Shown piece by piece: positions 30,502-63,513 of a stretch of DNA of 64,000 nt. Made by a program: the position numbers and the translations under genes. Origin of the DNA: Thermoproteota archaeon (GTDB lineage: Archaea > Thermoproteota > Thermoprotei > Gearchaeales > Gearchaeaceae); contig JAVVGF010000001.1 of assembly GCA_032249235.1 (NCBI GenBank), forward strand, positions 152,399 to 216,398, written 5' to 3'. The notes beneath the pieces are model-generated. The model did no database searches. It saw only the letters and a list, made by a program, of their open reading frames with translations, and was not told the DNA's origin. Position 1 is the stretch's first letter. Each line of letters begins with the position of its first letter.

Positions 30502-33500
30502 TTATCTCTTTCTTCTAAATATAAACAATATTGATATAATTATTATCAACGTTGCAACTAATATTAATAATATTATATTCAGATAATTAATTCCTGAATT
30601 CGCCTTTAAGACTATGGGTTTTTCTAGCTGGAGCTTTAACGGATTGTCACTCACATTAATGCTTCCAGCCCATCTTTTGAATTCATAAATGAACAAGCTA
30701 GGTTTTGCATTTAGCTCTAATTTCGTACCTTTAGGCAAGTATAACGTGACGCTGCTTCCTTGATCTATTGAGCCCGTCTTTGAATCATATTTATATTCTA
30801 TAATCAGGTTTTCAGAATTATTTATAGTTACAGATAAATAGAAAACTGCAATTTGAGTTATGCTACCGTTGACGGTTATCGATATTGAAGAAGAATTTCC
30901 ATTATAAGCACCACTCCAATACATGAATTTCCATCCTTCATTAGCAACAGCTTGCAAGTTTATAGTCGAGCTTGCATTATACCAACCGCTGTTTAAATTA
31001 ACACTTCCTCCTTCTTGTGGTTCAGCTTTTATCGTAACATAGTATTGATGATAATACCTAATAGTCTTAGAAATAGAACTATTCACAATTAAACTTTGAA
31101 CATCGAAAGTAATCCATCTTTCTTTATCGCCAGAATAAACAATATTATCATATCTCAAAGTAGAGTTGAAATCAGCCCAATCTTGTAATGGTAAGGTTGA
31201 ATTTGTTAAAATGCCGAATTTTGAATAAGCGACCTTAGGGGATATGCCTTCTCCTCCAATCGTATCAAGCTTTATATTTATCAAGAATTGCCTCCAATAA
31301 GCTATATTCAGTACTTTACTGCTATCAACGATAATGCTTGTTTGATTATTAGTAGCCCATCTTTCAACATTACTTATGCTCAATTCTTTAGTTATATTTA
31401 AATAGCTATTTGCATCTATGAAGCCAATGAAGGGTAATTTCGCTTCAGTTTTGTTACCAAGATATAGGTATTGCAAGGTTATATCAAGAGATTGAGTTGA
31501 ATCATTCATTACCTTATAATTAATACTAATACGGTATTGCAAATAGTATACAAAATTCAAAGTCATTGAGGAATTGATGGTAAAGCTAGTTTTAGGTGTT
31601 ATCCATCTTTGATTTTCATCCGATCCTTTTAGTAATAAAGGTATTTTCAGAACGGTATTTGCATCAATCCATTCGCTACTTGGCATTGTTTTATTCGTTA
31701 GTGCGCCGAAGCTGTAATATGTCATGTTAGGCAAATTACTATTTTGCCCCCCTACTATGTGTAGGTTAAAGTTGATGAGAAATTGGTGATAATAGTTAAT
31801 TTTTATCGTAATACTCTCACTTACTGTTCCTTTTGTTTGATCATTACTTATCCATCTTTCCTTATTGTTTGAATTAGGCAAAGGATTAATCACCTCCCAT
31901 TGAGTATTAGCATCGAGCCAATCACCGAAAGGCATCGTCTTTGAAACCTTACTACCAAATTGATAGAAGCTTGCATTAGGACTTACGAAATTACCTCCTC
32001 CAATTACATTGAATGAAAAAGTCAAGTAGAATTGATGGAAATAGAAGAATTGGTAATTGAAAGAGCTATTTACTATTCCTTGGGTATCATCCTTGGTTAT
32101 CCATCTTTCCTTATTGTTTGAATTAGGCAAAGGATTTAAGACCTTCCATATCGTGTTAGCATCAGCCCATATAGTAGTAGGTAGTTGTGCTGAAATACTT
32201 TGTCCAAACGCGATATAATCTACCATTGGCGGAGACGGGTTCGAATTGTCTGAAATTCTATAGTCAAAGCTTATTTTATATTGCTGGTAATAAACGTATC
32301 TTATTGTAATCGGCTCATTAGCAATTCCTTTGGTTTGATTATTAGTAATCCATCTCATGTTTTGCGTTGAACCGCCTAAGATTTCGGTAACGCTCCATTG
32401 TGAACCTTTATCAACCAAGTACGTTGTTGGAGTTGTAGTTAAGGTTGCTTGATTCTGTATACCATTAAAGTAATAGCTGAATATTGGGGGTTGATATCCT
32501 GAGCCAGATTTTACTGTATAGCTTAAGGTCATCGAAACATATGGTGTTGGTTGAGAGGATATTGAGAGTTTGCCTATATATGTGCTCCAATGATTGACAC
32601 CATCCATGTATTCTCCTGCGACCCAAACTTTAGTCCTGTCAGCAGGATCTACTGAAGCTCCAAAATAATCTCCATATCTATTTCTTGTCTCATAAGATTC
32701 GCCTGCTTTGATTTGAATCGGACTTAGCCAGCTATTAGTTTGACTGGTTAAAACAGCTGTCGCATTAAGGCTGGCATAATCATTGCTTGATGAATAACCA
32801 TAAACAATTACTATATTGTTATTTGAATCTAAACTTAAAGCAGGGTAGAATAAATACTTTTGAGCTATAGCTATCGTATTATCGCTTGCAACGCTACTAG
32901 TAGTGGTAGCAATGGATATTAACCTAATGCAATCTCTTTGAGTACTATCGTTTTGAGGAATACATCTTTCATGAGTTGTAAACCATAATTTATTTTGATA
33001 CCAAGTTGCATCTAAGACTCTTGCATCATCAGTGTTGATAGTTGCTAAAGTTCCTCTTTGCGGTGCATTCAAAGGGCTTGCAATATATCTTACGCTGAGA
33101 TAATATATGGATATTTGAACGTTGTTACTGCTAGGATTTCCGTCAACAACGAAATAAACAACCGTGCTAGTATCTCCTGAACCTGTGCTGACCATATAAA
33201 GAGTAGATGTGCCTCCTAAACTCTTAGCTGGATATATAGAGAAATAATTGCTATAAGTGGTAGTATATATGCTTAATGACGAATAGCCATTAATTAGCTG
33301 ATTTTTATCTAATATCCAAAGCCTTACCCAAAGATAAGAGGGATTGGAAATGGAGCAATTATCGAAAATATTTGAAGTAATCGCAACCTTATCACTACTT
33401 AAACCTAAGATTGGATAATCTGTGCATCTCCCTTGTTCATCATTTAATGAATAAATATACCAATCTCCTGTAGGGTCGCTTGTCTTTGAAACGGCTATTT

Positions 33501-33996
33501 TAACGATTCCTGCATTGAAGTCGCTTGAAATAGCGAAGAATCTTTGACTTTCAATATCGAAGAATATTCTCGGGTCTCCTACATTATCTGATGTGGGGAA
33601 ATTAAAGAACTGATAAAGAGTTTTTTGTTGTAATAAATTACCATTCTTATCGAATATCGTAATTTTCCTATTGACCATTTCAACTACGTGATTAGGACCT
33701 ACTGCTATTTGCACATCAGGAGGATAACCGTTGGATTCGCTATCTCCCTTGAAGCTGAAATCAAGATTTAATTGGCCGGCTTGTTGCGTACTCTCAGTGT
33801 TATACTGTGCAATCTGTTTAGCGTTTTCAAATTGCTTTGAATTTACAAAAGAAAAGCTGGGAATTAAAGACAGTGCGTTGAATTTTAAGTCTTGTTTAGT
33901 TGAAGTCGTAGCAGTTGTATTCGTAATATCTGAAAATGATGCAGATATGGGAATGAGTAAAACCGCGATTATTAAAACAAGCAATAGATATTTCAT
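30502..33996 (-). CDS. very large secreted, C-terminally TM-anchored surface protein with ~83-aa tandem repeats (S-layer/cell-surface protein candidate)
   Basis: 1164 aa. It has a signal peptide (MKYLLLVLIIAVLLIPISASF), a C-terminal TM segment followed by RRKR, and at least six tandem units recurring as ...NPLPNSNNKERWI(T/S)... with conserved Y.HQF/Y and ...DANT.W... positions. It is sequon-rich throughout. Confidence 0.7.
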   Translation of the reverse strand: MKYLLLVLIIAVLLIPISASFSDITNTTATTSTKQDLKFNALSLIPSFSFVNSKQFENAKQIAQYNTESTQQAGQLNLDFSFKGDSESNGYPPDVQIAVGPNHVVEMVNRKITIFDKNGNLLQQKTLYQFFNFPTSDNVGDPRIFFDIESQRFFAISSDFNAGIVKIAVSKTSDPTGDWYIYSLNDEQGRCTDYPILGLSSDKVAITSNIFDNCSISNPSYLWVRLWILDKNQLINGYSSLSIYTTTYSNYFSIYPAKSLGGTSTLYMVSTGSGDTSTVVYFVVDGNPSSNNVQISIYYLSVRYIASPLNAPQRGTLATINTDDARVLDATWYQNKLWFTTHERCIPQNDSTQRDCIRLISIATTTSSVASDNTIAIAQKYLFYPALSLDSNNNIVIVYGYSSSNDYASLNATAVLTSQTNSWLSPIQIKAGESYETRNRYGDYFGASVDPADRTKVWVAGEYMDGVNHWSTYIGKLSISSQPTPYVSMTLSYTVKSGSGYQPPIFSYYFNGIQNQATLTTTPTTYLVDKGSQWSVTEILGGSTQNMRWITNNQTKGIANEPITIRYVYYQQYKISFDYRISDNSNPSPPMVDYIAFGQSISAQLPTTIWADANTIWKVLNPLPNSNNKERWITKDDTQGIVNSSFNYQFFYFHQFYLTFSFNVIGGGNFVSPNASFYQFGSKVSKTMPFGDWLDANTQWEVINPLPNSNNKERWISNDQTKGTVSESITIKINYYHQFLINFNLHIVGGQNSNLPNMTYYSFGALTNKTMPSSEWIDANTVLKIPLLLKGSDENQRWITPKTSFTINSSMTLNFVYYLQYRISINYKVMNDSTQSLDITLQYLYLGNKTEAKLPFIGFIDANSYLNITKELSISNVERWATNNQTSIIVDSSKVLNIAYWRQFLINIKLDTIGGEGISPKVAYSKFGILTNSTLPLQDWADFNSTLRYDNIVYSGDKERWITFDVQSLIVNSSISKTIRYYHQYYVTIKAEPQEGGSVNLNSGWYNASSTINLQAVANEGWKFMYWSGAYNGNSSSISITVNGSITQIAVFYLSVTINNSENLIIEYKYDSKTGSIDQGSSVTLYLPKGTKLELNAKPSLFIYEFKRWAGSINVSDNPLKLQLEKPIVLKANSGINYLNIILLILVATLIIIISILFIFRRKR
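31848..32136. repeat. intragenic tandem repeat: identical 40-nt segments at 31848–31887 and 32097–32136 (period 249 bp = 83 codons)
   Basis: The exact string ttatccatctttccttattgtttgaattaggcaaaggatt occurs twice, 249 bp apart, inside the 1164-aa gene. On the minus strand it encodes NPLPNSNNKERWI. Confidence 0.85.
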
Positions 33997-34099
33997 GGGT
34001 AAAATAAAAAATTTCGCATTAAAAGCTTTAATTATTATGTTTCAAGGATATGAATATTTTAGATTGTAGAACTATGATCACGATTAAGATATATTTTTG

Positions 34100-34470
34100 A
34101 ACCCATAATGTGTCATACAATTGTAATAATGGCTCTCTGTCTACAAAGAAATGAAAGCCTGCCCTTTTGGGCGCGGTTGAATAGATCTAAATATTTTGAA
34201 AAAGAAAATTTTATAAGCATGGCAATAAAGTTTCTCCCCAGCTCGAAAGAGGGCCAATGGGATTGAGGGAGAAGCATTCAGCATACTTGTATTTTGTTTT
34301 GCAATGAGGGGGCCCCTTTAAAATTTCGGGACCCTAGAAAAATAAATGGGTTTCTCTGCACCACCTTCTGTCCACCAAATGAGAAATGTAGCTACGAATC
34401 GATGGTGGGAACAATGAAGCGCTTTGGAAAGAAAACACTAGACCTTTTCAAAGCTGAAGTAGGTCAGTAA
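34100..34470. ncRNA. candidate structured non-coding RNA (GC-elevated island in an AT-rich genome; identity unassigned)
   Basis: This intergenic stretch has no ORF of 60 aa or more on any strand. Its GC content is clearly higher than its surroundings. It contains self-complementary elements (gggggcccc, gggaccc), a ctc-GAAA-gag tetraloop hairpin nested within a ttctccc...gggagaa helix, and a ccacc...ggtgg pairing. Strand and exact ends are unknown. Confidence 0.25.
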
Positions 34471-34610
34471 GACAATGATTAATACAACAACAATAACAAG
34501 TTTTTCCATGCAGTATGCTATTAGCTTAGGATATATCGCAGTTATAGAGTCTTATTAGCAATTGTAATTTTCTTGCTATTCTTTAGAAGTAGGGAAGTCC
34601 ATAATTCGAT

Positions 34611-37600
34611 TTATCTTTTTATTTTTGAAGGCCACCAATTCCATTTCTTCGCTATTAGCATTATTGAAGGAACAAAGAATTGAACTATTATGAAAGAATC
34701 GAACAATACTGATAAACCTATTGCGAAGCCTATTTCGTTTAACAAAGGAAAGTTAGGTATTAATAACAACAAGAAAGTTATACCTAGAAGCAATCCTAAA
34801 ATCATAATAGTTGTTCCTGTCTTCTCTAGGGCTATCTTTATTGCATCTTCATCATTTTTCCCTTTGACTACTTCTTCTCTAACCCTTGTTAAAAGAAATA
34901 TGTCATAATCTACGCCAACACCTAGCATTGTAACAACTAGAAACAGTGGTACAGCATTTATTATTGGTAAGTTAAATAACAAATGGTATACTATGTATAG
35001 CAGAGCTAATGACCATGCTACACTTGATAAAACTGTCAATATTAACCTAATGGGTATCAACACCGAAATTAGTTGCATGAATAACAAAAATCCTATGACT
35101 GTAATTAAACTTAGAAGTACGATTGGAGTAACTTGATCTGTGACAGCCTTAGAATCGAAGGACATTTGAGTTACGCCATCTACATAAACTTTAAATTCTT
35201 CATTCGCAGGTATTACTGCTCTGATTTCTTTTAGCACTTCGATAGCGTCTAAGCTAAAAGGTTGTTTATCTATAATGACCTCTATTAAAACACCATTATT
35301 CGAAGTGCCTATAAATCTTTCTATTGAAGGTAAAAATATTTCCTTAGTGGTTTCGTTTAAAAATACTTTATTTAAATCAATTTTATCTCCAAAAGGTCTA
35401 TCGATCGTGTATACATATTTAACTTCTTTTATCTTTGAAATATTATCAGCTATTGAAGAAACATAATTTAAATAAGTAGAATTTAAATTTTCATTAATTA
35501 GAACTTTACCTTTTCCTTCTACGTATATGTATATAGGGCTTATTGAAGAACCTATGGTTGAGTAAAACAACAATGTGCCTTTTTGAACTTCACTAGGAGG
35601 CATGAGAGGAGGAACATCGAGAACAGTTGTTATATTTGATACGAATAGTAATGAAATAAGAGTTATTGCAGTAAGTAAAAGCACTATCTCATTCTTGTGC
35701 TTCAAGTTAAACTCATACACTTTTGAAAGCTTTATTTCATAACCTTTCGTTCTTTTCGGCCAAAACACTTTATCGCCTAGCGCATATAACAAAGAAGGAA
35801 AGAATAGCAAGCTAGTTATCATTGTAGACGCTACAGCAATTGCATTAGCTATTGCAGTCTCACCAAATAAAGGTACATTCATTAAAGACAATATGACATA
35901 TGAAGAGAAAACAGCTAGCGAACTTGTTATTACTCCTCTTGAGCTCCAATAAGTCACAGCCATTAAAGCTTCATTTTTATCCTTTCCTTCACTTCTCTCA
36001 AGTTGATATCTTCTAAGAAGATAAGCTGAATAATCGCTACATAACCCAAGCGTAAGAACTAATACTATTGAAGGTGAAACGAAGCTTATGTTTCTATTAA
36101 GCCAAATTCCAAGAATTATATAATTCAAAGCAAATGCGATTATAATAGCAATTGCGAAGAGCGATAAAACTATTCCGCCTGCAACAAAAGATCTAAAATA
36201 GAGCGAAACTATTAAGAAAATTATCACCAAACCTAAAGGTATAATCGTATACAAAGCATTCTCCGCTCCTATTTTTATTTCATGAGATAATAATGAAATT
36301 CCAGTAATGTAGATTTCTACATTATTAGTTTTAACATCCTTCTTAATTTTATCGAAAATATCGAGATCTTTCGCTATTTCTTGGTCGTTAGGATAGTGAT
36401 TTGAAAAGACTATTATAAGAAAAATTCCATGAGTTTCATCAATGAAGATTGATTTTATATTATCTTTAAGAATAATTGGGAAATCCTTTACATCGCTGTT
36501 AATTATTATTTCTTTAATAGTATCATTTAAATTATTATTATTATCTATGATTTTATTTAAAAATTTTATGAATGTATAATTATTAACATAAAAATATGGA
36601 TTGTAATTTATATTGTTAAGGATATTTTTTAAAACAAAAGTAGCAGTTATATTTTTAGCTATTGATTCATTAAATGTTTTTTGCTCGATTATTTCATCTA
36701 CTAATTGAACTACTGAATTTTGGTTACTTATTTCTTTAGTTATAATATCTTCTGTTATTTTGTTTATATCTGTCTTATTGACTATTAGTTCTCGAATTTT
36801 ATCAATTAAAAATTCTTTATCTATATTTGTTTGTAATTTACTTTTGAATATCTCTAGCGAGATATTCAGCAAAACGCTCTTACCGTTCCAAGTATTTAGG
36901 TTGGTGTTACCTAAAATTATCGCGATAATTTCCTTTGTCAAATTGAAGTAATTTTCAAGAAAATAAGGTGAAATTTTATCAATTATTTCTTGGGCATTTT
37001 GGTAATAATTGCCTATATTATTATATTTTATCCATTCTTGATAGAATGTATTAAAGTAGTTCAATGCTATTCCGCTTAGGTTTAATGTTAGAATGGTCAA
37101 ATTCTTTGCTTCTTCTGATCTTTTAATTGAATCGTTAATATTTAAAAATTGATAATACTTTAAAAATACTGAAGGTGGGCCGTAAATAAAATTTAATATA
37201 TTACTTATGTCATTTTCTATTTTAGTAATATTATTGACTGCTTGATCGAGAAATTTCTTAATTAAGATTGTCTGATTATATATCTTAAAGGATTCGTTAT
37301 ACAACTGATTTATTTTATCCGTATAATTAGCAACGATTTGGTATAAAAGTATTTCTGTTAATTTATAATAACTAAGAGAAAATTTGTTCATTTCTTTGTC
37401 TATTTTTTCCCTTATACTATAATCAAATAATTTAATATCATTCGAATATGGATTGTTCGATTTGATTATTATGTAATAGTTATATGAAGCTATCACGCTA
37501 AGATATTTGGCTGTATAATTTTTATGCGAAAATTCTGCGTTGATTTTATTCACTGCATTTTGGAAGTCGCTATTTGGCAAATTCACCTCAACATCATAGT

Positions 37601-37760
37601 TTATTATCTTATTTATCATTGGAGCGAATGGTGCAAGAGATAAAGCGATTAAAATCCAGATGACAATTATTTTCTTGTATTTTTGTCTTACGAAGGATGA
37701 ATATCTTTCCATTAAAGCTATATTTTTTTCCTCAATAATATATGCTTTCAAAGGTAACAA
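34611..37760 (-). CDS. MMPL/RND-superfamily-like integral membrane transporter (two TM bundles separated by large extracytoplasmic domains)
   Basis: 1049 aa. It has an N-terminal TM helix, a ~450-aa Asn/Ile-rich extracytoplasmic domain, a cluster of ~5 TM helices (LVIIFLIVSLYF..., AIAIIIAFALNYIILGIWL..., VLTLGLCSDYSAYLLRRY...), a second soluble domain, and a second TM cluster (LLSLITVIGFLLFMQL..., VPLFLVVTMLGVGVDYDIFLLTRVRE...). The GxxxD/DYxxF-type motifs are reminiscent of RND/MMPL exporters. Confidence 0.65.
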   Translation of the reverse strand: MLPLKAYIIEEKNIALMERYSSFVRQKYKKIIVIWILIALSLAPFAPMINKIINYDVEVNLPNSDFQNAVNKINAEFSHKNYTAKYLSVIASYNYYIIIKSNNPYSNDIKLFDYSIREKIDKEMNKFSLSYYKLTEILLYQIVANYTDKINQLYNESFKIYNQTILIKKFLDQAVNNITKIENDISNILNFIYGPPSVFLKYYQFLNINDSIKRSEEAKNLTILTLNLSGIALNYFNTFYQEWIKYNNIGNYYQNAQEIIDKISPYFLENYFNLTKEIIAIILGNTNLNTWNGKSVLLNISLEIFKSKLQTNIDKEFLIDKIRELIVNKTDINKITEDIITKEISNQNSVVQLVDEIIEQKTFNESIAKNITATFVLKNILNNINYNPYFYVNNYTFIKFLNKIIDNNNNLNDTIKEIIINSDVKDFPIILKDNIKSIFIDETHGIFLIIVFSNHYPNDQEIAKDLDIFDKIKKDVKTNNVEIYITGISLLSHEIKIGAENALYTIIPLGLVIIFLIVSLYFRSFVAGGIVLSLFAIAIIIAFALNYIILGIWLNRNISFVSPSIVLVLTLGLCSDYSAYLLRRYQLERSEGKDKNEALMAVTYWSSRGVITSSLAVFSSYVILSLMNVPLFGETAIANAIAVASTMITSLLFFPSLLYALGDKVFWPKRTKGYEIKLSKVYEFNLKHKNEIVLLLTAITLISLLFVSNITTVLDVPPLMPPSEVQKGTLLFYSTIGSSISPIYIYVEGKGKVLINENLNSTYLNYVSSIADNISKIKEVKYVYTIDRPFGDKIDLNKVFLNETTKEIFLPSIERFIGTSNNGVLIEVIIDKQPFSLDAIEVLKEIRAVIPANEEFKVYVDGVTQMSFDSKAVTDQVTPIVLLSLITVIGFLLFMQLISVLIPIRLILTVLSSVAWSLALLYIVYHLLFNLPIINAVPLFLVVTMLGVGVDYDIFLLTRVREEVVKGKNDEDAIKIALEKTGTTIMILGLLLGITFLLLLIPNFPLLNEIGFAIGLSVLFDSFIIVQFFVPSIMLIAKKWNWWPSKIKR

Positions 37761-60795: not shown

Positions 60796-63513
60796 ATGAG
60801 AAGAATACTTCTTTCAATACTGATTTGTGGATTAATACTGGGGGGCTTATTCAATATTCAATCCTCTTACGCAAATGGCCAATATCAATCTTCAAGCTCA
60901 GGCGGTCAATGGGTTAGTCGCTATAATTCGCCTTATAATAATCCCTATTCTGAAAAACTCTATAGTTCCATTGCAGATAATTCATCTATCTCACTTTCGA
61001 ATCTAGGTGATCCTAATGGAGAAATCGCTTCTAAAGCATTAATATACAACAATATCGCGTACTTCGTAACCAAATCTGTAAGTATTTACTCTTTAGATCT
61101 TTCAAGCTATAACTATAAATCTATGAATCTGTCATTATCAAATAATATACTAAGCTCTACTCCTGCTCTTGTCGGTGAAAATTGTAATACTATCGCTGCA
61201 ATAGATGGATTGTCTTTTGTTAATTTTATAAGATTTGGGCCGGGCTTGAGTATTTCATTGCTAAGAAAATATGGACCTTTGAATATTTATTCAAATCCTG
61301 TAACGCCTAGCAATTCTAATTTTTTCATAACGAGCAATTCTTCTCCTTCAGGTTATATCTATGTTTTTGGTTGTGATGGAACTATTAACAATATATATAT
61401 GTTATCACCTTATGAGCAACCTGAAAAAGGAGTTGCGGTTAAATCTAATACAATATACGTACTCACAAATTTTGGCTCTGTAAAAGCTATTGGTAATGTG
61501 AACTGGAACGCCCAACTCGGATTGAAGTTTACACAAGAACCAGTTATCTATAACGATCGGATTTTCGTAAGAGGTGTAATGTATGAAGATGGTTCCGAAA
61601 TGATAGTAGCGTTGAATTCAACTAACGGCTCAACTATATGGTCTTTAAGAATTCCAGCAACCATACTAAGTCCGATGGTAATATTTCAAGATAGAATTTA
61701 TTTCATAACCGAAGGACCTTATATCTACAGCCTTAATGCTTCAAATGGTGCTGTTCTAAAAACAAAGAAGCTTCAATCTATTTCTTTTACTGGTATTTCG
61801 CCAGATATGATAGCGATTTCAAGCGAATTGGTCTTCACAGGTATTTACAATGGCAAATTTTCGCTCGTTTATTATGATGTTATTGATGATTTGATCAATT
61901 ATGATTATTTGAATGCTAACTTAGGTAAACCAATAGGGATTAGTTTAGGTAATGGTAAAATTATTGTTACTTTTCAAAAAGGAATTGAACAATTACCCAT
62001 AAAAGCTAAAGCTTCACTAAAAATCTATGTTGAACCCGCTTCATATAACTATAGCGTAAATATTAATGGAACAAGCTATATTATACAACCAAACAATACA
62101 TTCATACTTTACCTCTTCCTCAAAAGACCTTCTTCTCTTAATTTAGAAATTAAAAATAAGATTATAATAAACGATCAGAAATATCTCGGATTTTATAGAT
62201 GGGAAAACGTTTCACAAAGCAATTTCAATAAATCAACAGTTTACATTAATCAATGGGATTCAATTGTAGTTAAAGCTTATTATAGATATTATCTTTTAAC
62301 AAACTTAAATTTGGATTATAAAATCATAAGTAGTCAGCAAATCAACGTAACGCCTAAAATAAATATAGTTGAATACAATTCGACGAAAGTCTCACTTTTC
62401 CTTCCACAAAATACGACATCTAACTTCACTATTTATGCACAACCCGTAGTTGTGATTAACAAGACTTCAAGTCTTGTGTTTCAAAAATGGAGTGATGGAG
62501 ATAAAAATTACATAAGAAAGATTTATGTGCAGGCAGGTTCGACTGTTTATTTCACAGCACTATACTCATTATCTAATAACTATACGCTAACTTTAATAGT
62601 GAATCCATCAAATTATGCTTCTAAAATTTTACAAAGTTTATCAACAAATTTGAATAATGTTACTTCTATGGTTTGGATAGTCCCTCCAAATACAAATGTG
62701 ACTTTTGAAATCAAGCAAACTATAATATCTTTAAATAGTACAGCTAGATTAGCATTTGCCTATTGGTCAGGCGATATTTCTTCTAACGACACTAAAATTA
62801 CATTTTCAGTATCTCATACCAACTTTACTATAGTATTAAATTTCCAATTACAAAAATTATTCATAGTAAAGCTAATTAATATAACATATTATAATAATCA
62901 AATAATTAATAATGGTACTTCAACAATCTTAAGTAAGTGGTATTCTAGTTCAAATTATAATTACACTTTGAAAATTAATAAAATAATTTATTTAAATAAA
63001 TATGAAAGATTATTAATTTCTAATTATACAATAAACACTATTAATTCAAAAACTAATGAGACATCTAATTATATTATTTCTACGATAACTTTGAGTAGTG
63101 GAACTACACTTATCAAAGTGGTATATGTTTTGCAAAAATACACACAGCTTCTAATTATTTTCAATGATCCAGAAGTTAAATATATATTTATAAATGGAAC
63201 TAAAGAAGATATAATAAAAAACAATAATACTTATCTAGTAAATAAAACTATGTGGACTTCGAATAGCATAAAATTCTATATTGAGGCAGTTGAAAAGGTA
63301 AAATTAAGCGATTATGAGTATATTGTTTTTAAATCTTTTAATAATACATCCTCTTCTTCGATCTCTGTGAATTTAAATCCGGGTGATAAAGTTACTTTGT
63401 ATGCTCAGTATCAAAGAGAAAATGTACTAGCTCTTTCGAGTAGCATCTTGGTAATATTGATATTGGTCATAGGTATAATGGTTATTGCCATTCTAATAAG
63501 ATGGTTGATGTAA
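60796..63513 (+). CDS. secreted PQQ-like beta-propeller repeat protein with C-terminal TM anchor
   Basis: 905 aa. A signal peptide is followed by repeated ..IYxxSxDGxxxAL(N)xxNGxxxW.. blades (e.g. MIVALNSTNGSTIWSLRIP, IYSLNASNGAVLKTKKL), a sequon-rich beta region, and the TM SSILVILILVIGIMVIAILI. Confidence 0.55.
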   Translation: MRRILLSILICGLILGGLFNIQSSYANGQYQSSSSGGQWVSRYNSPYNNPYSEKLYSSIADNSSISLSNLGDPNGEIASKALIYNNIAYFVTKSVSIYSLDLSSYNYKSMNLSLSNNILSSTPALVGENCNTIAAIDGLSFVNFIRFGPGLSISLLRKYGPLNIYSNPVTPSNSNFFITSNSSPSGYIYVFGCDGTINNIYMLSPYEQPEKGVAVKSNTIYVLTNFGSVKAIGNVNWNAQLGLKFTQEPVIYNDRIFVRGVMYEDGSEMIVALNSTNGSTIWSLRIPATILSPMVIFQDRIYFITEGPYIYSLNASNGAVLKTKKLQSISFTGISPDMIAISSELVFTGIYNGKFSLVYYDVIDDLINYDYLNANLGKPIGISLGNGKIIVTFQKGIEQLPIKAKASLKIYVEPASYNYSVNINGTSYIIQPNNTFILYLFLKRPSSLNLEIKNKIIINDQKYLGFYRWENVSQSNFNKSTVYINQWDSIVVKAYYRYYLLTNLNLDYKIISSQQINVTPKINIVEYNSTKVSLFLPQNTTSNFTIYAQPVVVINKTSSLVFQKWSDGDKNYIRKIYVQAGSTVYFTALYSLSNNYTLTLIVNPSNYASKILQSLSTNLNNVTSMVWIVPPNTNVTFEIKQTIISLNSTARLAFAYWSGDISSNDTKITFSVSHTNFTIVLNFQLQKLFIVKLINITYYNNQIINNGTSTILSKWYSSSNYNYTLKINKIIYLNKYERLLISNYTINTINSKTNETSNYIISTITLSSGTTLIKVVYVLQKYTQLLIIFNDPEVKYIFINGTKEDIIKNNNTYLVNKTMWTSNSIKFYIEAVEKVKLSDYEYIVFKSFNNTSSSSISVNLNPGDKVTLYAQYQRENVLALSSSILVILILVIGIMVIAILIRWLM

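Follow-up and report, generated by a model that had tools for sequence, protein, structure and literature searches.

A GC-rich intergenic island in an AT-rich Thermoproteota genome is most probably a decayed TnpB-less IS200/IS605-family element

A short, GC-rich segment without genes in an otherwise AT-rich archaeal genome raises the question of whether it is a structured RNA gene of the host or has some other origin. The segment considered here (positions 34100-34470) belongs to a stretch of 64,000 nucleotides, referred to throughout as the window, from contig JAVVGF010000001.1 of a Thermoproteota archaeon (assembly GCA_032249235.1). A first-pass annotation based on the sequence had described a non-coding island of elevated GC between a surface-protein gene and an MMPL transporter gene, and this description was confirmed. 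The island has a GC content of 0.40 compared to a window mean of 0.311 (sd 0.041), which places it at the 99.7th percentile among 370-bp windows, with 100-bp peaks of 0.43-0.45, and it sits in a host spacer of 614 bp (33997-34610) bounded by the two named genes (Table 1). The open reading frames (ORFs) in the island span 28-58 aa and nothing longer, and none of the six frames has native codon usage. All of the palindromes and complements that had been listed were recovered in their places: GGGGGCCCC at 34308, GGGACCC at 34328, CTCGAAAGAG at 34242 nested inside TTCTCCC (34232) and GGGAGAA (34267), CCACC twice (34361 and 34372), and GGTGG at 34404. The spacer is identical in each of nine metagenome contigs from the same strain, and gene calling in public assemblies of this genome placed nothing at the island.

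The first-pass annotation had proposed a structured cellular RNA encoded by the host, with a signal recognition particle (SRP) RNA, an RNase P RNA, a C/D or H/ACA guide of large size, and a novel sRNA as the candidates. The high local GC in an AT-rich genome and the presence of several hairpins are consistent with such a gene. Rfam 15 returned no match at the gathering threshold across the whole 64-kb window, and searches at E<=10 of positions 33900-34750 and of a 156-nt slice (34335-34490) returned noise only, leaving none of the named RNA classes with a match. The segment did not fold more stably than dinucleotide-shuffled sequences. Taken whole, it had z-scores of -0.9 (+ strand) and -1.5 (- strand), and sliding windows of 120 nt on both strands gave values from -2.4 to +2.3, none of them significant. 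The only C/D-type Rfam match, to SNORD107 (16.9 bits, E 4.6), lies outside of the element described below.

The orthologous locus of the closest other lineage (L007) provides a further comparison. The MMPL protein is 85% identical and the gene order of MMPL, spacer, and surface protein is maintained, but the syntenic spacer (647 bp, 29% GC) lacks the island. Only about 100 bp beside the start of the surface-protein gene can be aligned between the two spacers (72.5% identity over 102 nt), corresponding to the promoter-proximal region of that gene, where a TTTTAAT box occurs 22-28 nt upstream of the ATG. Neither the sequence profile of the element family nor the covariance model CM R1 (both described below) matched the L007 spacer, and the profile had no match in the other relatives. 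Among genome representatives, the MMPL protein is 42-43% identical and synteny is absent, while in the more distant relatives as a whole (MMPL identity of 42-61%) the downstream genes differ, with thioredoxin-like and DUF429 genes following the MMPL gene in those at 53-61%. The first-pass annotation had itself named the lack of an Rfam match and the lack of conservation in orthologous regions among the outcomes that would count against its proposal, and both were observed, which contradicts the reading as a cellular structured RNA. Combined with homology over the whole length of the island to a mobile element present at unrelated loci in many organisms, a host RNA gene is considered extremely unlikely.

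The homology to mobile DNA accounts for the identity of the island. When the spacer was compared with phage and plasmid collections using blastn, the only matches were to mobile DNA of the Sulfolobales, confined to positions 34354-34428, and came from plasmid pHVE14 (E 2e-7), virus STSV4 (E 7e-6), and virus ATV2 (E 1e-2). In ATV2, an 'IS605 family OrfB transposon' is annotated whose 3' end coincides exactly with the match, and the ORF of this transposon carries the Cas12f1-like TNB domain (Pfam PF07282, 65 bits). Plasmid pHVE14 has a frameshifted homologue that shares both ends, STSV4 has a gene-less version in which a ctcGAAAgag-type hairpin is also present, and the homologue on pMGB1 is named 'RNA-guided endonuclease TnpB family protein' by PGAP. 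A degenerate pattern of the core occurred in three stretches of viral DNA and in at least 119 of metagenome DNA, the window's own locus not being among the latter. All copy numbers reported here are lower bounds; among the matches listed there are 125 copies, on contigs of 28-60% GC, of which 57 have a TnpB directly upstream and 68 have no TnpB within 1.7 kb, some of the latter cut by contig ends. The upstream TnpBs are mostly 70-88% identical to the ATV2 protein, with one at 43%.

The copies without tnpB form a subfamily to which the island belongs. At least 27 distinct full-length copies without tnpB were identified on contigs of 28-52% GC, each with different flanking sequence, and an nhmmer profile constructed from 27 such copies with the window excluded matched positions 34138-34461 (E 2.1e-49). 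The window has no second match to this profile, making this its only copy, and no repeats were found within the window. Five of the gene-less siblings (L034, L083, L074, L094, and L128) occur on AT-rich contigs at unrelated loci and share 75-80% identity with the island over 336-374 nt (E down to 7e-76), with direct blastn comparisons to L034 and L083 giving 77-80% over 338-374 nt (E 1e-75). The window copy aligns from end to end in a 28-row alignment of gene-less copies (A3). The left end, TATA-like box, and start-codon region align with the full-length elements of ATV2 and pHVE14, and the right end aligns with the 57 tnpB-linked 3' ends among the matches listed. No transposase or TnpB gene and no Pfam match was found inside the 323-bp element, where ORFs do not exceed 58 aa, and neither tnpB nor tnpA was found in the 64-kb window. 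It is therefore highly probable that the island is a decayed copy of a TnpB-less derivative of the IS200/IS605 family, similar to a PATE or MITE, and that this copy is likely immobile and functionless.

The probable boundaries of the element follow from comparison within the family. In approximately 50 copies, both full-length and TnpB-less, conservation begins at TTAC/AAAAA and stops at GTCAG, with unrelated flanks on either side. In the window, similarity begins at (T)TAC/AAAG and stops at the same GTCAG, with junctions of TCTAC to the left and TAAGACAATG to the right. The AT-rich siblings have TTTAC or TTTAT before the left end. No direct repeat flanks the window element, and the preceding motif is CTAC where the family has TTAC. 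By analogy to IS608, TTAC is presumed to be the insertion target, equivalent to a TAM.

Table 1. Features of the element and of its host spacer in the window
Feature	Position	Strand	Basis or remark
Flg_new_2 surface-protein gene	30502-33996	-	1164 aa; start borders the spacer
Promoter-proximal region of the surface-protein gene	33997-34100	-	Outside the element; sole piece of the spacer conserved in L007
CTAC, degenerate TTAC	34141-34144	+	Almost every family copy has TTAC before its left end
Whole TnpB-less element, 323 bp	34145-34467	+	nhmmer profile, end-to-end alignment, sibling blastn
Left-end subterminal hairpin, remnant	34157-34176	+	Family form CCTCGCC(C)-loop-(G)GGCGGGG
TCTAAATA, mutated TTTAAAT(A) TATA-like box	34186-34193	+	Precedes tnpB in full-length elements
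ATG at the tnpB start-codon position, no gene following	34219-34221	+	Alignment with full-length copies
Internal hairpin TTCTCCC...CTCGAAAGAG...GGGAGAA	34232-34273	+	Conserved in the TnpB-less subfamily
GGGGGCCCC...GGGACCC segment	34308-34334	+	Variable spacer from internal hairpin to right-end module
Right-end module, omegaRNA-/HgcC-like scaffold, ending GGTCAG	34348-34467	+	CM R1, covariation
3' flank next to the right end	34468-34487	+	Guide position if the module is an omegaRNA; position only
MMPL transporter gene	34611-37760	-	1049 aa; stop borders the spacer

Several parts of the full-length element are recognizable in the gene-less form. The TTTAAAT box, which is inferred to be a promoter, is present in most full-length elements, and every row of A3 apart from the window (27 in all) has it unchanged. 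The start-codon region reads AAGCATGGCA in the window and TTAATGGCTAGG in pHVE14 and ATV2, and the frame that follows the ATG in the window reaches a stop at 34264-34266. The internal hairpin pairs positions 130-137 with 169-176 and 140-144 with 151-155 of A3, and at pair 133:173, 22 rows carry CG and six carry UA; a strict regular expression for this hairpin found the motif in 28 copies. The segment that follows can be aligned with the AT-rich siblings only (GAGGGGTCCCC...CGGGACC), and no consensus pairing was predicted within it. Beyond the right end, the 3' flank is different in every copy, which is the region assigned a guide role in the TnpB literature (PMC11043419; bioRxiv 10.1101/2023.03.14.532601). 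A run of five T residues at about 34501-34505 is a possible archaeal terminator.

The structure of the right-end module was predicted from an alignment of 52 distinct long-type modules (A2), with the window excluded, for which RNAalifold predicted three helices. Standard pairs occupy 96% of the helix cells, 12 of the 27 pairs have compensatory changes on both sides, and 93 cells have changed on both sides where 36 are expected. The observed pairing and covariation were reached in none of 500 shuffles, and control helices slid along the alignment were only 41-60% paired. The frequent G-U pairs are consistent with the + strand, and the helices also covary in the alignment of gene-less copies, where there is no protein constraint. 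A covariance model built from A2 (CM R1) matched positions 34348-34472 of the + strand (77.3 bits, E 4.8e-17, model positions 1-126). The claim of a structured, non-coding segment was borne out, with the right half of the island belonging to a family with three covarying helices; it is the assignment to an RNA gene of the host that did not hold. In the window copy, helix 1 (34348-34365) is broken by deletions, while helix 2 (34371-34410, formed by CCACC and GGTGG) and helix 3 (34421-34431 with 34444-34454) are intact. The idea that the CCACC and GGTGG repeats mark an ORB-like origin of replication was set aside, since these repeats constitute helix 2 and there is no neighbouring orc1/cdc6 gene.

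An alternative 3' hairpin, CCCTCG.CC/GGGCGGGG, is 92.5% paired with compensatory changes in five of eight pairs, and the arms are those of the left-end hairpin. This hairpin excludes helix 3, and both covary. Two mutually exclusive, covarying 3' helices imply that part of the conserved structure may serve the recognition of single-stranded DNA and not an RNA; one conformation may be used for recognition by TnpA and the other for the RNA.

The position of the module matches that of known omegaRNAs, located at the 3' end of tnpB and overlapping the last codons and the right end, in 57 of the 125 copies among the matches listed; the window copy has the homologous module and lacks tnpB. Based on characterized relatives, we infer how such elements would move, be transcribed, and be used as guides. 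In a full-length relative, the left end bears a subterminal hairpin and is followed by a TATA-like promoter, tnpB (OrfB, an RNA-guided nuclease), and a structured right-end module of about 120 nt that overlaps the last tnpB codons and ends in GTCAG. The miniature form retains the two ends with the right-end module, as well as the promoter and the place of the tnpB start codon, and the gene is replaced by a short spacer that bears its own hairpin. Elements of this type would be expected to move as single-stranded DNA through a TnpA supplied in trans, which would recognize the hairpins at the ends and insert the element 3' of a short motif, in this case TTAC. The paradigm for the IS200/IS605 group, IS608 of Helicobacter pylori, inserts 3' of TTAC, carries similar imperfect hairpins close to each end, and finishes in a TCAN-type motif on the right, though it is bacterial and encodes both tnpA and tnpB. 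Only the architecture is common to IS608 and the window family, and the role of TTAC is assigned by analogy. The right-end module would act as a transcribed scaffold of the omegaRNA, reRNA, sotRNA, or HgcC type, for which the guide would be the DNA past the right end. On this explanation, the GC excess and palindromes of the island are the end hairpins together with the RNA helices, and the window copy was inserted in the spacer between the MMPL and surface-protein genes and subsequently decayed; judging from the L007 spacer, this insertion is specific to the lineage of the window.

Several lesions in the window copy point to this decay. The left-end stem is reduced to 4 bp (-4.3 kcal/mol) compared to 8 bp (-7.4 kcal/mol) in sibling L034, both folded as DNA, and the TnpA-type hairpin of the right end has been lost, such that the similar subterminal hairpins found at both ends in the family are not found in this copy. 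The TATA-like box has a T to C change at an otherwise invariant site, the TTAC before the left end has become CTAC, and the 3' tail next to the guide position is altered from GAGGAAGTCAG to GAAGTAGGTCAG. Among the AT-rich siblings, the window copy has the lowest score to CM R1 (77 bits), with siblings overall at 112-155 bits (112-132 for the AT-rich siblings and 125-155 for most of the GC-rich long-type copies). It is also the most diverged of the AT-rich copies, sharing 77-82% identity with its siblings, compared to 83-91% among the siblings themselves. The window copy is a derivative of the family by descent and not an intact, mobilizable member. The simplest reading is that of an old, immobile insertion drifting toward the AT-rich composition of the host, in which the surviving G+C-rich helices produce the GC island, and the copy is most likely immobile and without function. 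It should be noted that helices 2 and 3 remain intact, and a dead relic is a likelihood and not a demonstration.

The retained helices bear on another interpretation, in which the copy is a working stand-alone gene for a guide RNA (an omegaRNA or HgcC-like sRNA). Its transcript would start from the retained TATA-like box, run past the right end into the adjoining DNA, and be used in trans by a TnpB encoded elsewhere, or it would have been co-opted as a regulator, for example one acting in antisense on the MMPL gene at its 3' end. The promoter box, covarying internal hairpin, and full right-end module are conserved throughout the TnpB-less subfamily in hosts of 28-52% GC, and helices 2 and 3 are intact in the window copy. 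[quoted passage not shown] Against this reading, helix 1 is broken, the tail beside the guide is changed, and both the TATA box and the TTAC motif are mutated; the score to CM R1 is 35-55 bits under that of the siblings, the window has no tnpB, and there is no thermodynamic signal. Additionally, the IS1341-type (solo tnpB) genes of S. islandicus, unlike the IS605-type, are reported to have no sense-overlapping transcript (PMC11043419), and as such, RNA output from the family of the window is not guaranteed. A working guide-RNA gene at this locus is regarded as unlikely. A bolder proposal is that the TnpB-less family as a whole represents widespread stand-alone guide-RNA genes in thermophilic Thermoproteota, with the worn copy in the window still producing an RNA that is used by a distant TnpB or co-opted by the host, possibly to act on the surface-protein or MMPL genes; this is held to be improbable.

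The remaining interpretations of the island involve a protein, either as the decayed remnant of a host gene, which the first-pass annotation had named as a refuting outcome, or as a small gene carried by the element. One + strand frame (34108-34470) contains a single TGA in 130 codons, sibling ORFs reach 105-124 codons with those on the + strand of the AT-rich copies exceeding the 95th percentile of shuffled sequences, the length is divisible by three in 15 of 26 central gap events, and thioredoxin-like and DUF429 genes occur downstream of the MMPL gene in the more distant relatives noted above. Against this, scans of six frames identified no Pfam match and only one weak PHROG match (E 0.07), and no similarity to thioredoxin-like, DUF429, or TnpB proteins was found beyond a marginal stretch of 18 aa that represents the C-terminal tail of TnpB (E 0.044). 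Codon scores in the six frames range from -0.12 to +0.04 per codon compared to 0.30 +/- 0.07 for native genes in frame, and GC is flat over the three codon positions. Long ORFs occur on both strands of the family (means of 95 and 89 codons versus 59 in shuffles), a consequence of stop-poor palindromic sequence, a third-position excess is absent from the internal region, and the ORFs continue past the element into unrelated flanks. Without a protein family match and with non-native codon usage, a coding origin of either kind is judged very unlikely. A pseudogene of the thioredoxin-like or DUF429 genes from the relatives at 53-61% was also rejected, with no significant similarity by tblastn, as was a conserved ORF in the miniature elements, for the reasons of strand, codon position, and flank given above. 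The excess of indels in multiples of three, like the unusual length of + strand ORFs among AT-rich copies, is left unexplained; in a weaker variant of the bolder proposal above, these frame-preserving indels and ORFs could reflect a small protein encoded by the element.

Elements with a comparable organization are known from other archaea. PATEs are gene-less derivatives of IS200/IS605 elements that often encode omegaRNAs requiring use in trans (Meers et al., bioRxiv 10.1101/2023.03.14.532601; PMC4615843). Like the family described here, PATEs join the ends of tnpB-bearing insertion sequences without the gene, have subterminal hairpins with no evident inverted terminal repeats or target duplication, and carry a guide-RNA scaffold at the right end, with mobilization and RNA use in trans presumed by analogy for the family of the window. 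Unlike PATEs, this Thermoproteota family has a sequence of its own, maintains the tnpB promoter and start codon, and has an additional conserved internal hairpin, and the window copy is degraded. The Sulfolobus elements SMN1 and SMN2 (~320 bp) can be likened to the family by description, being of similar size with no inverted repeats and no transposase gene; they are found on Sulfolobales chromosomes and plasmids and are presumed to be mobilized by IS200/IS605 transposases (PMC3718332, PMC3839810). When pMGB1, a reported carrier of SMN2, was compared with a family member using blastn, the match was limited to the tnpB-linked right-end module.

The closest parallel on the RNA side is HgcC (Rfam RF00062), which was discovered through a screen for high GC in Methanocaldococcus jannaschii and has the same right-end-like motif (PMC4615843). 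Members of the family score 24-41 bits against RF00062 (best E 2e-6), below the gathering score of 50, and the window copy has no match to HgcC, even at E<=10 on the 156-nt slice. HgcC, like the segment in the window, is a GC-rich island in an AT-rich thermophile, and HgcC and the family have in common a 5' helix with a UCUCUGA-type loop and a 3' hairpin, CCcCGccc-UUuA-gggCGggG, followed by AGGAGGUCAG, though the middle of the model differs. The omegaRNAs or reRNAs of TnpB and the archaeal sotRNAs (PMC11043419; PMC4615843) correspond to the family in the module extending over the last tnpB codons and the right end, the covarying helices, and the variable flank that starts directly past the conserved end. 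The S. islandicus system is of the TnpA-linked IS605 type, with a TAM of TTTAA and a right end of TTCAC (PMC11043419), whereas the family of the window is linked to a solo tnpB, flanked by TTAC, ends in GTCAG, and is described here from sequence alone.

The assignment of the island has several implications. For annotation, it removes one false candidate for a new cellular RNA, and it illustrates that the rule by which a GC island in an AT-rich thermophile is equated with a structured RNA can also capture miniature relics of IS200/IS605 elements, as occurred historically with HgcC. A specialist would find the outcome unsurprising. The island is a degraded member of a class of mobile elements that is already known. 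The earlier reading nonetheless contained part of the truth, in that the family has structure and is akin to RNAs already described, and the window copy may retain some RNA function. For mobile elements, an AT-rich Thermoproteota branch is added to the family of TnpB-linked ends, together with a covariance model with three supported helices and an alternative 3' hairpin, and TTAC is indicated as the likely target or TAM of a solo-tnpB clade that is biochemically uncharacterized. A separate locus (L121) has a solitary right-end fragment, without tnpB, positioned behind a membrane-protein gene.

At its 3' end (window 34419-34460), the omegaRNA-/HgcC-like right-end module has two alternative helices that exclude each other, and both have accumulated compensatory changes across A2, the alignment of 52 right-end modules that leaves out the window copy. 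The U-G pair in the shorter hairpin is found in 51 of the 52 rows. As both competing helices covary, the alignment suggests that the same 3' sequence of the module may serve either two conformations or two molecules, the RNA and a single-stranded DNA.

Competing 3' helices of the right-end module, with their alignment columns
Feature	Description	Position
Long helix 3	First of two competing 3' helices	A2 columns 75-114
Shorter hairpin, arms matching the left-end hairpin	Second of two competing 3' helices	A2 columns 75-114

Many of the gene-less copies (L034, L074, L083, L094, and L128 from AT-rich contigs, and others in A3, the alignment of 28 such copies) still have an uninterrupted reading frame, 105-124 codons long, which begins near the old tnpB start, crosses the right end, and continues into the flank. 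In the AT-rich copies the length of this frame exceeds the 95th percentile of shuffles, and 15 of the 26 central gap events in A3 are a multiple of three in length. Arguing against coding, the opposite-strand ORFs of these copies are also long and third-position bias is absent, though this does not account for the pattern in full. Two of the copies, L094 and L128, represent one insertion with shared flanks on two metagenome contigs (97.5% identity), and this orthologous pair is a possible gauge of relic evolution.

Of the whole spacer, only window 33997-34100 (minus strand), which is promoter-proximal to the surface-protein gene, is conserved with the syntenic relative whose MMPL is 85% identical (L007), at 72.5% over 102 nt. 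Ahead of the surface-protein ATG, at a distance of 22-28 nt, is a TTTTAAT box, a spacing which suggests that the transcript may be leaderless or have a short leader. Local gene order has changed between lineages, since different genes lie 3' of MMPL in three relatives with MMPL identities of 53-61% (L008, L010, and L011). Instead of the surface-protein gene, these carry a 110-112-aa CxxC thioredoxin-like gene and a DUF429 gene, on the strand opposite to MMPL and overlapping its end. Within the MMPL coding region of the window, GC falls to 15-18% at 36400-36700, where AT content is higher than anywhere else in the neighbourhood of the element and the predicted protein has its Asn/Ile/Lys-rich segment.

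No Rfam family reached its gathering score over the whole window (1-64000), and thus no tRNA, rRNA, SRP RNA, or RNase P RNA gene is present there. The right-end covariance model has a second match at window 60928-61062 (minus strand; 13.6 bits, E 0.079), with mostly poor pairs, and the nhmmer profile of the gene-less copies has no match at this position; the weak match is probably due to chance. Elsewhere, a solo right-end module on the AT-rich contig of L121 (10200-10325, minus strand), lacking the left end and internal part and located directly 3' of a 176-aa membrane-protein gene, shows that the family also survives as truncated pieces.
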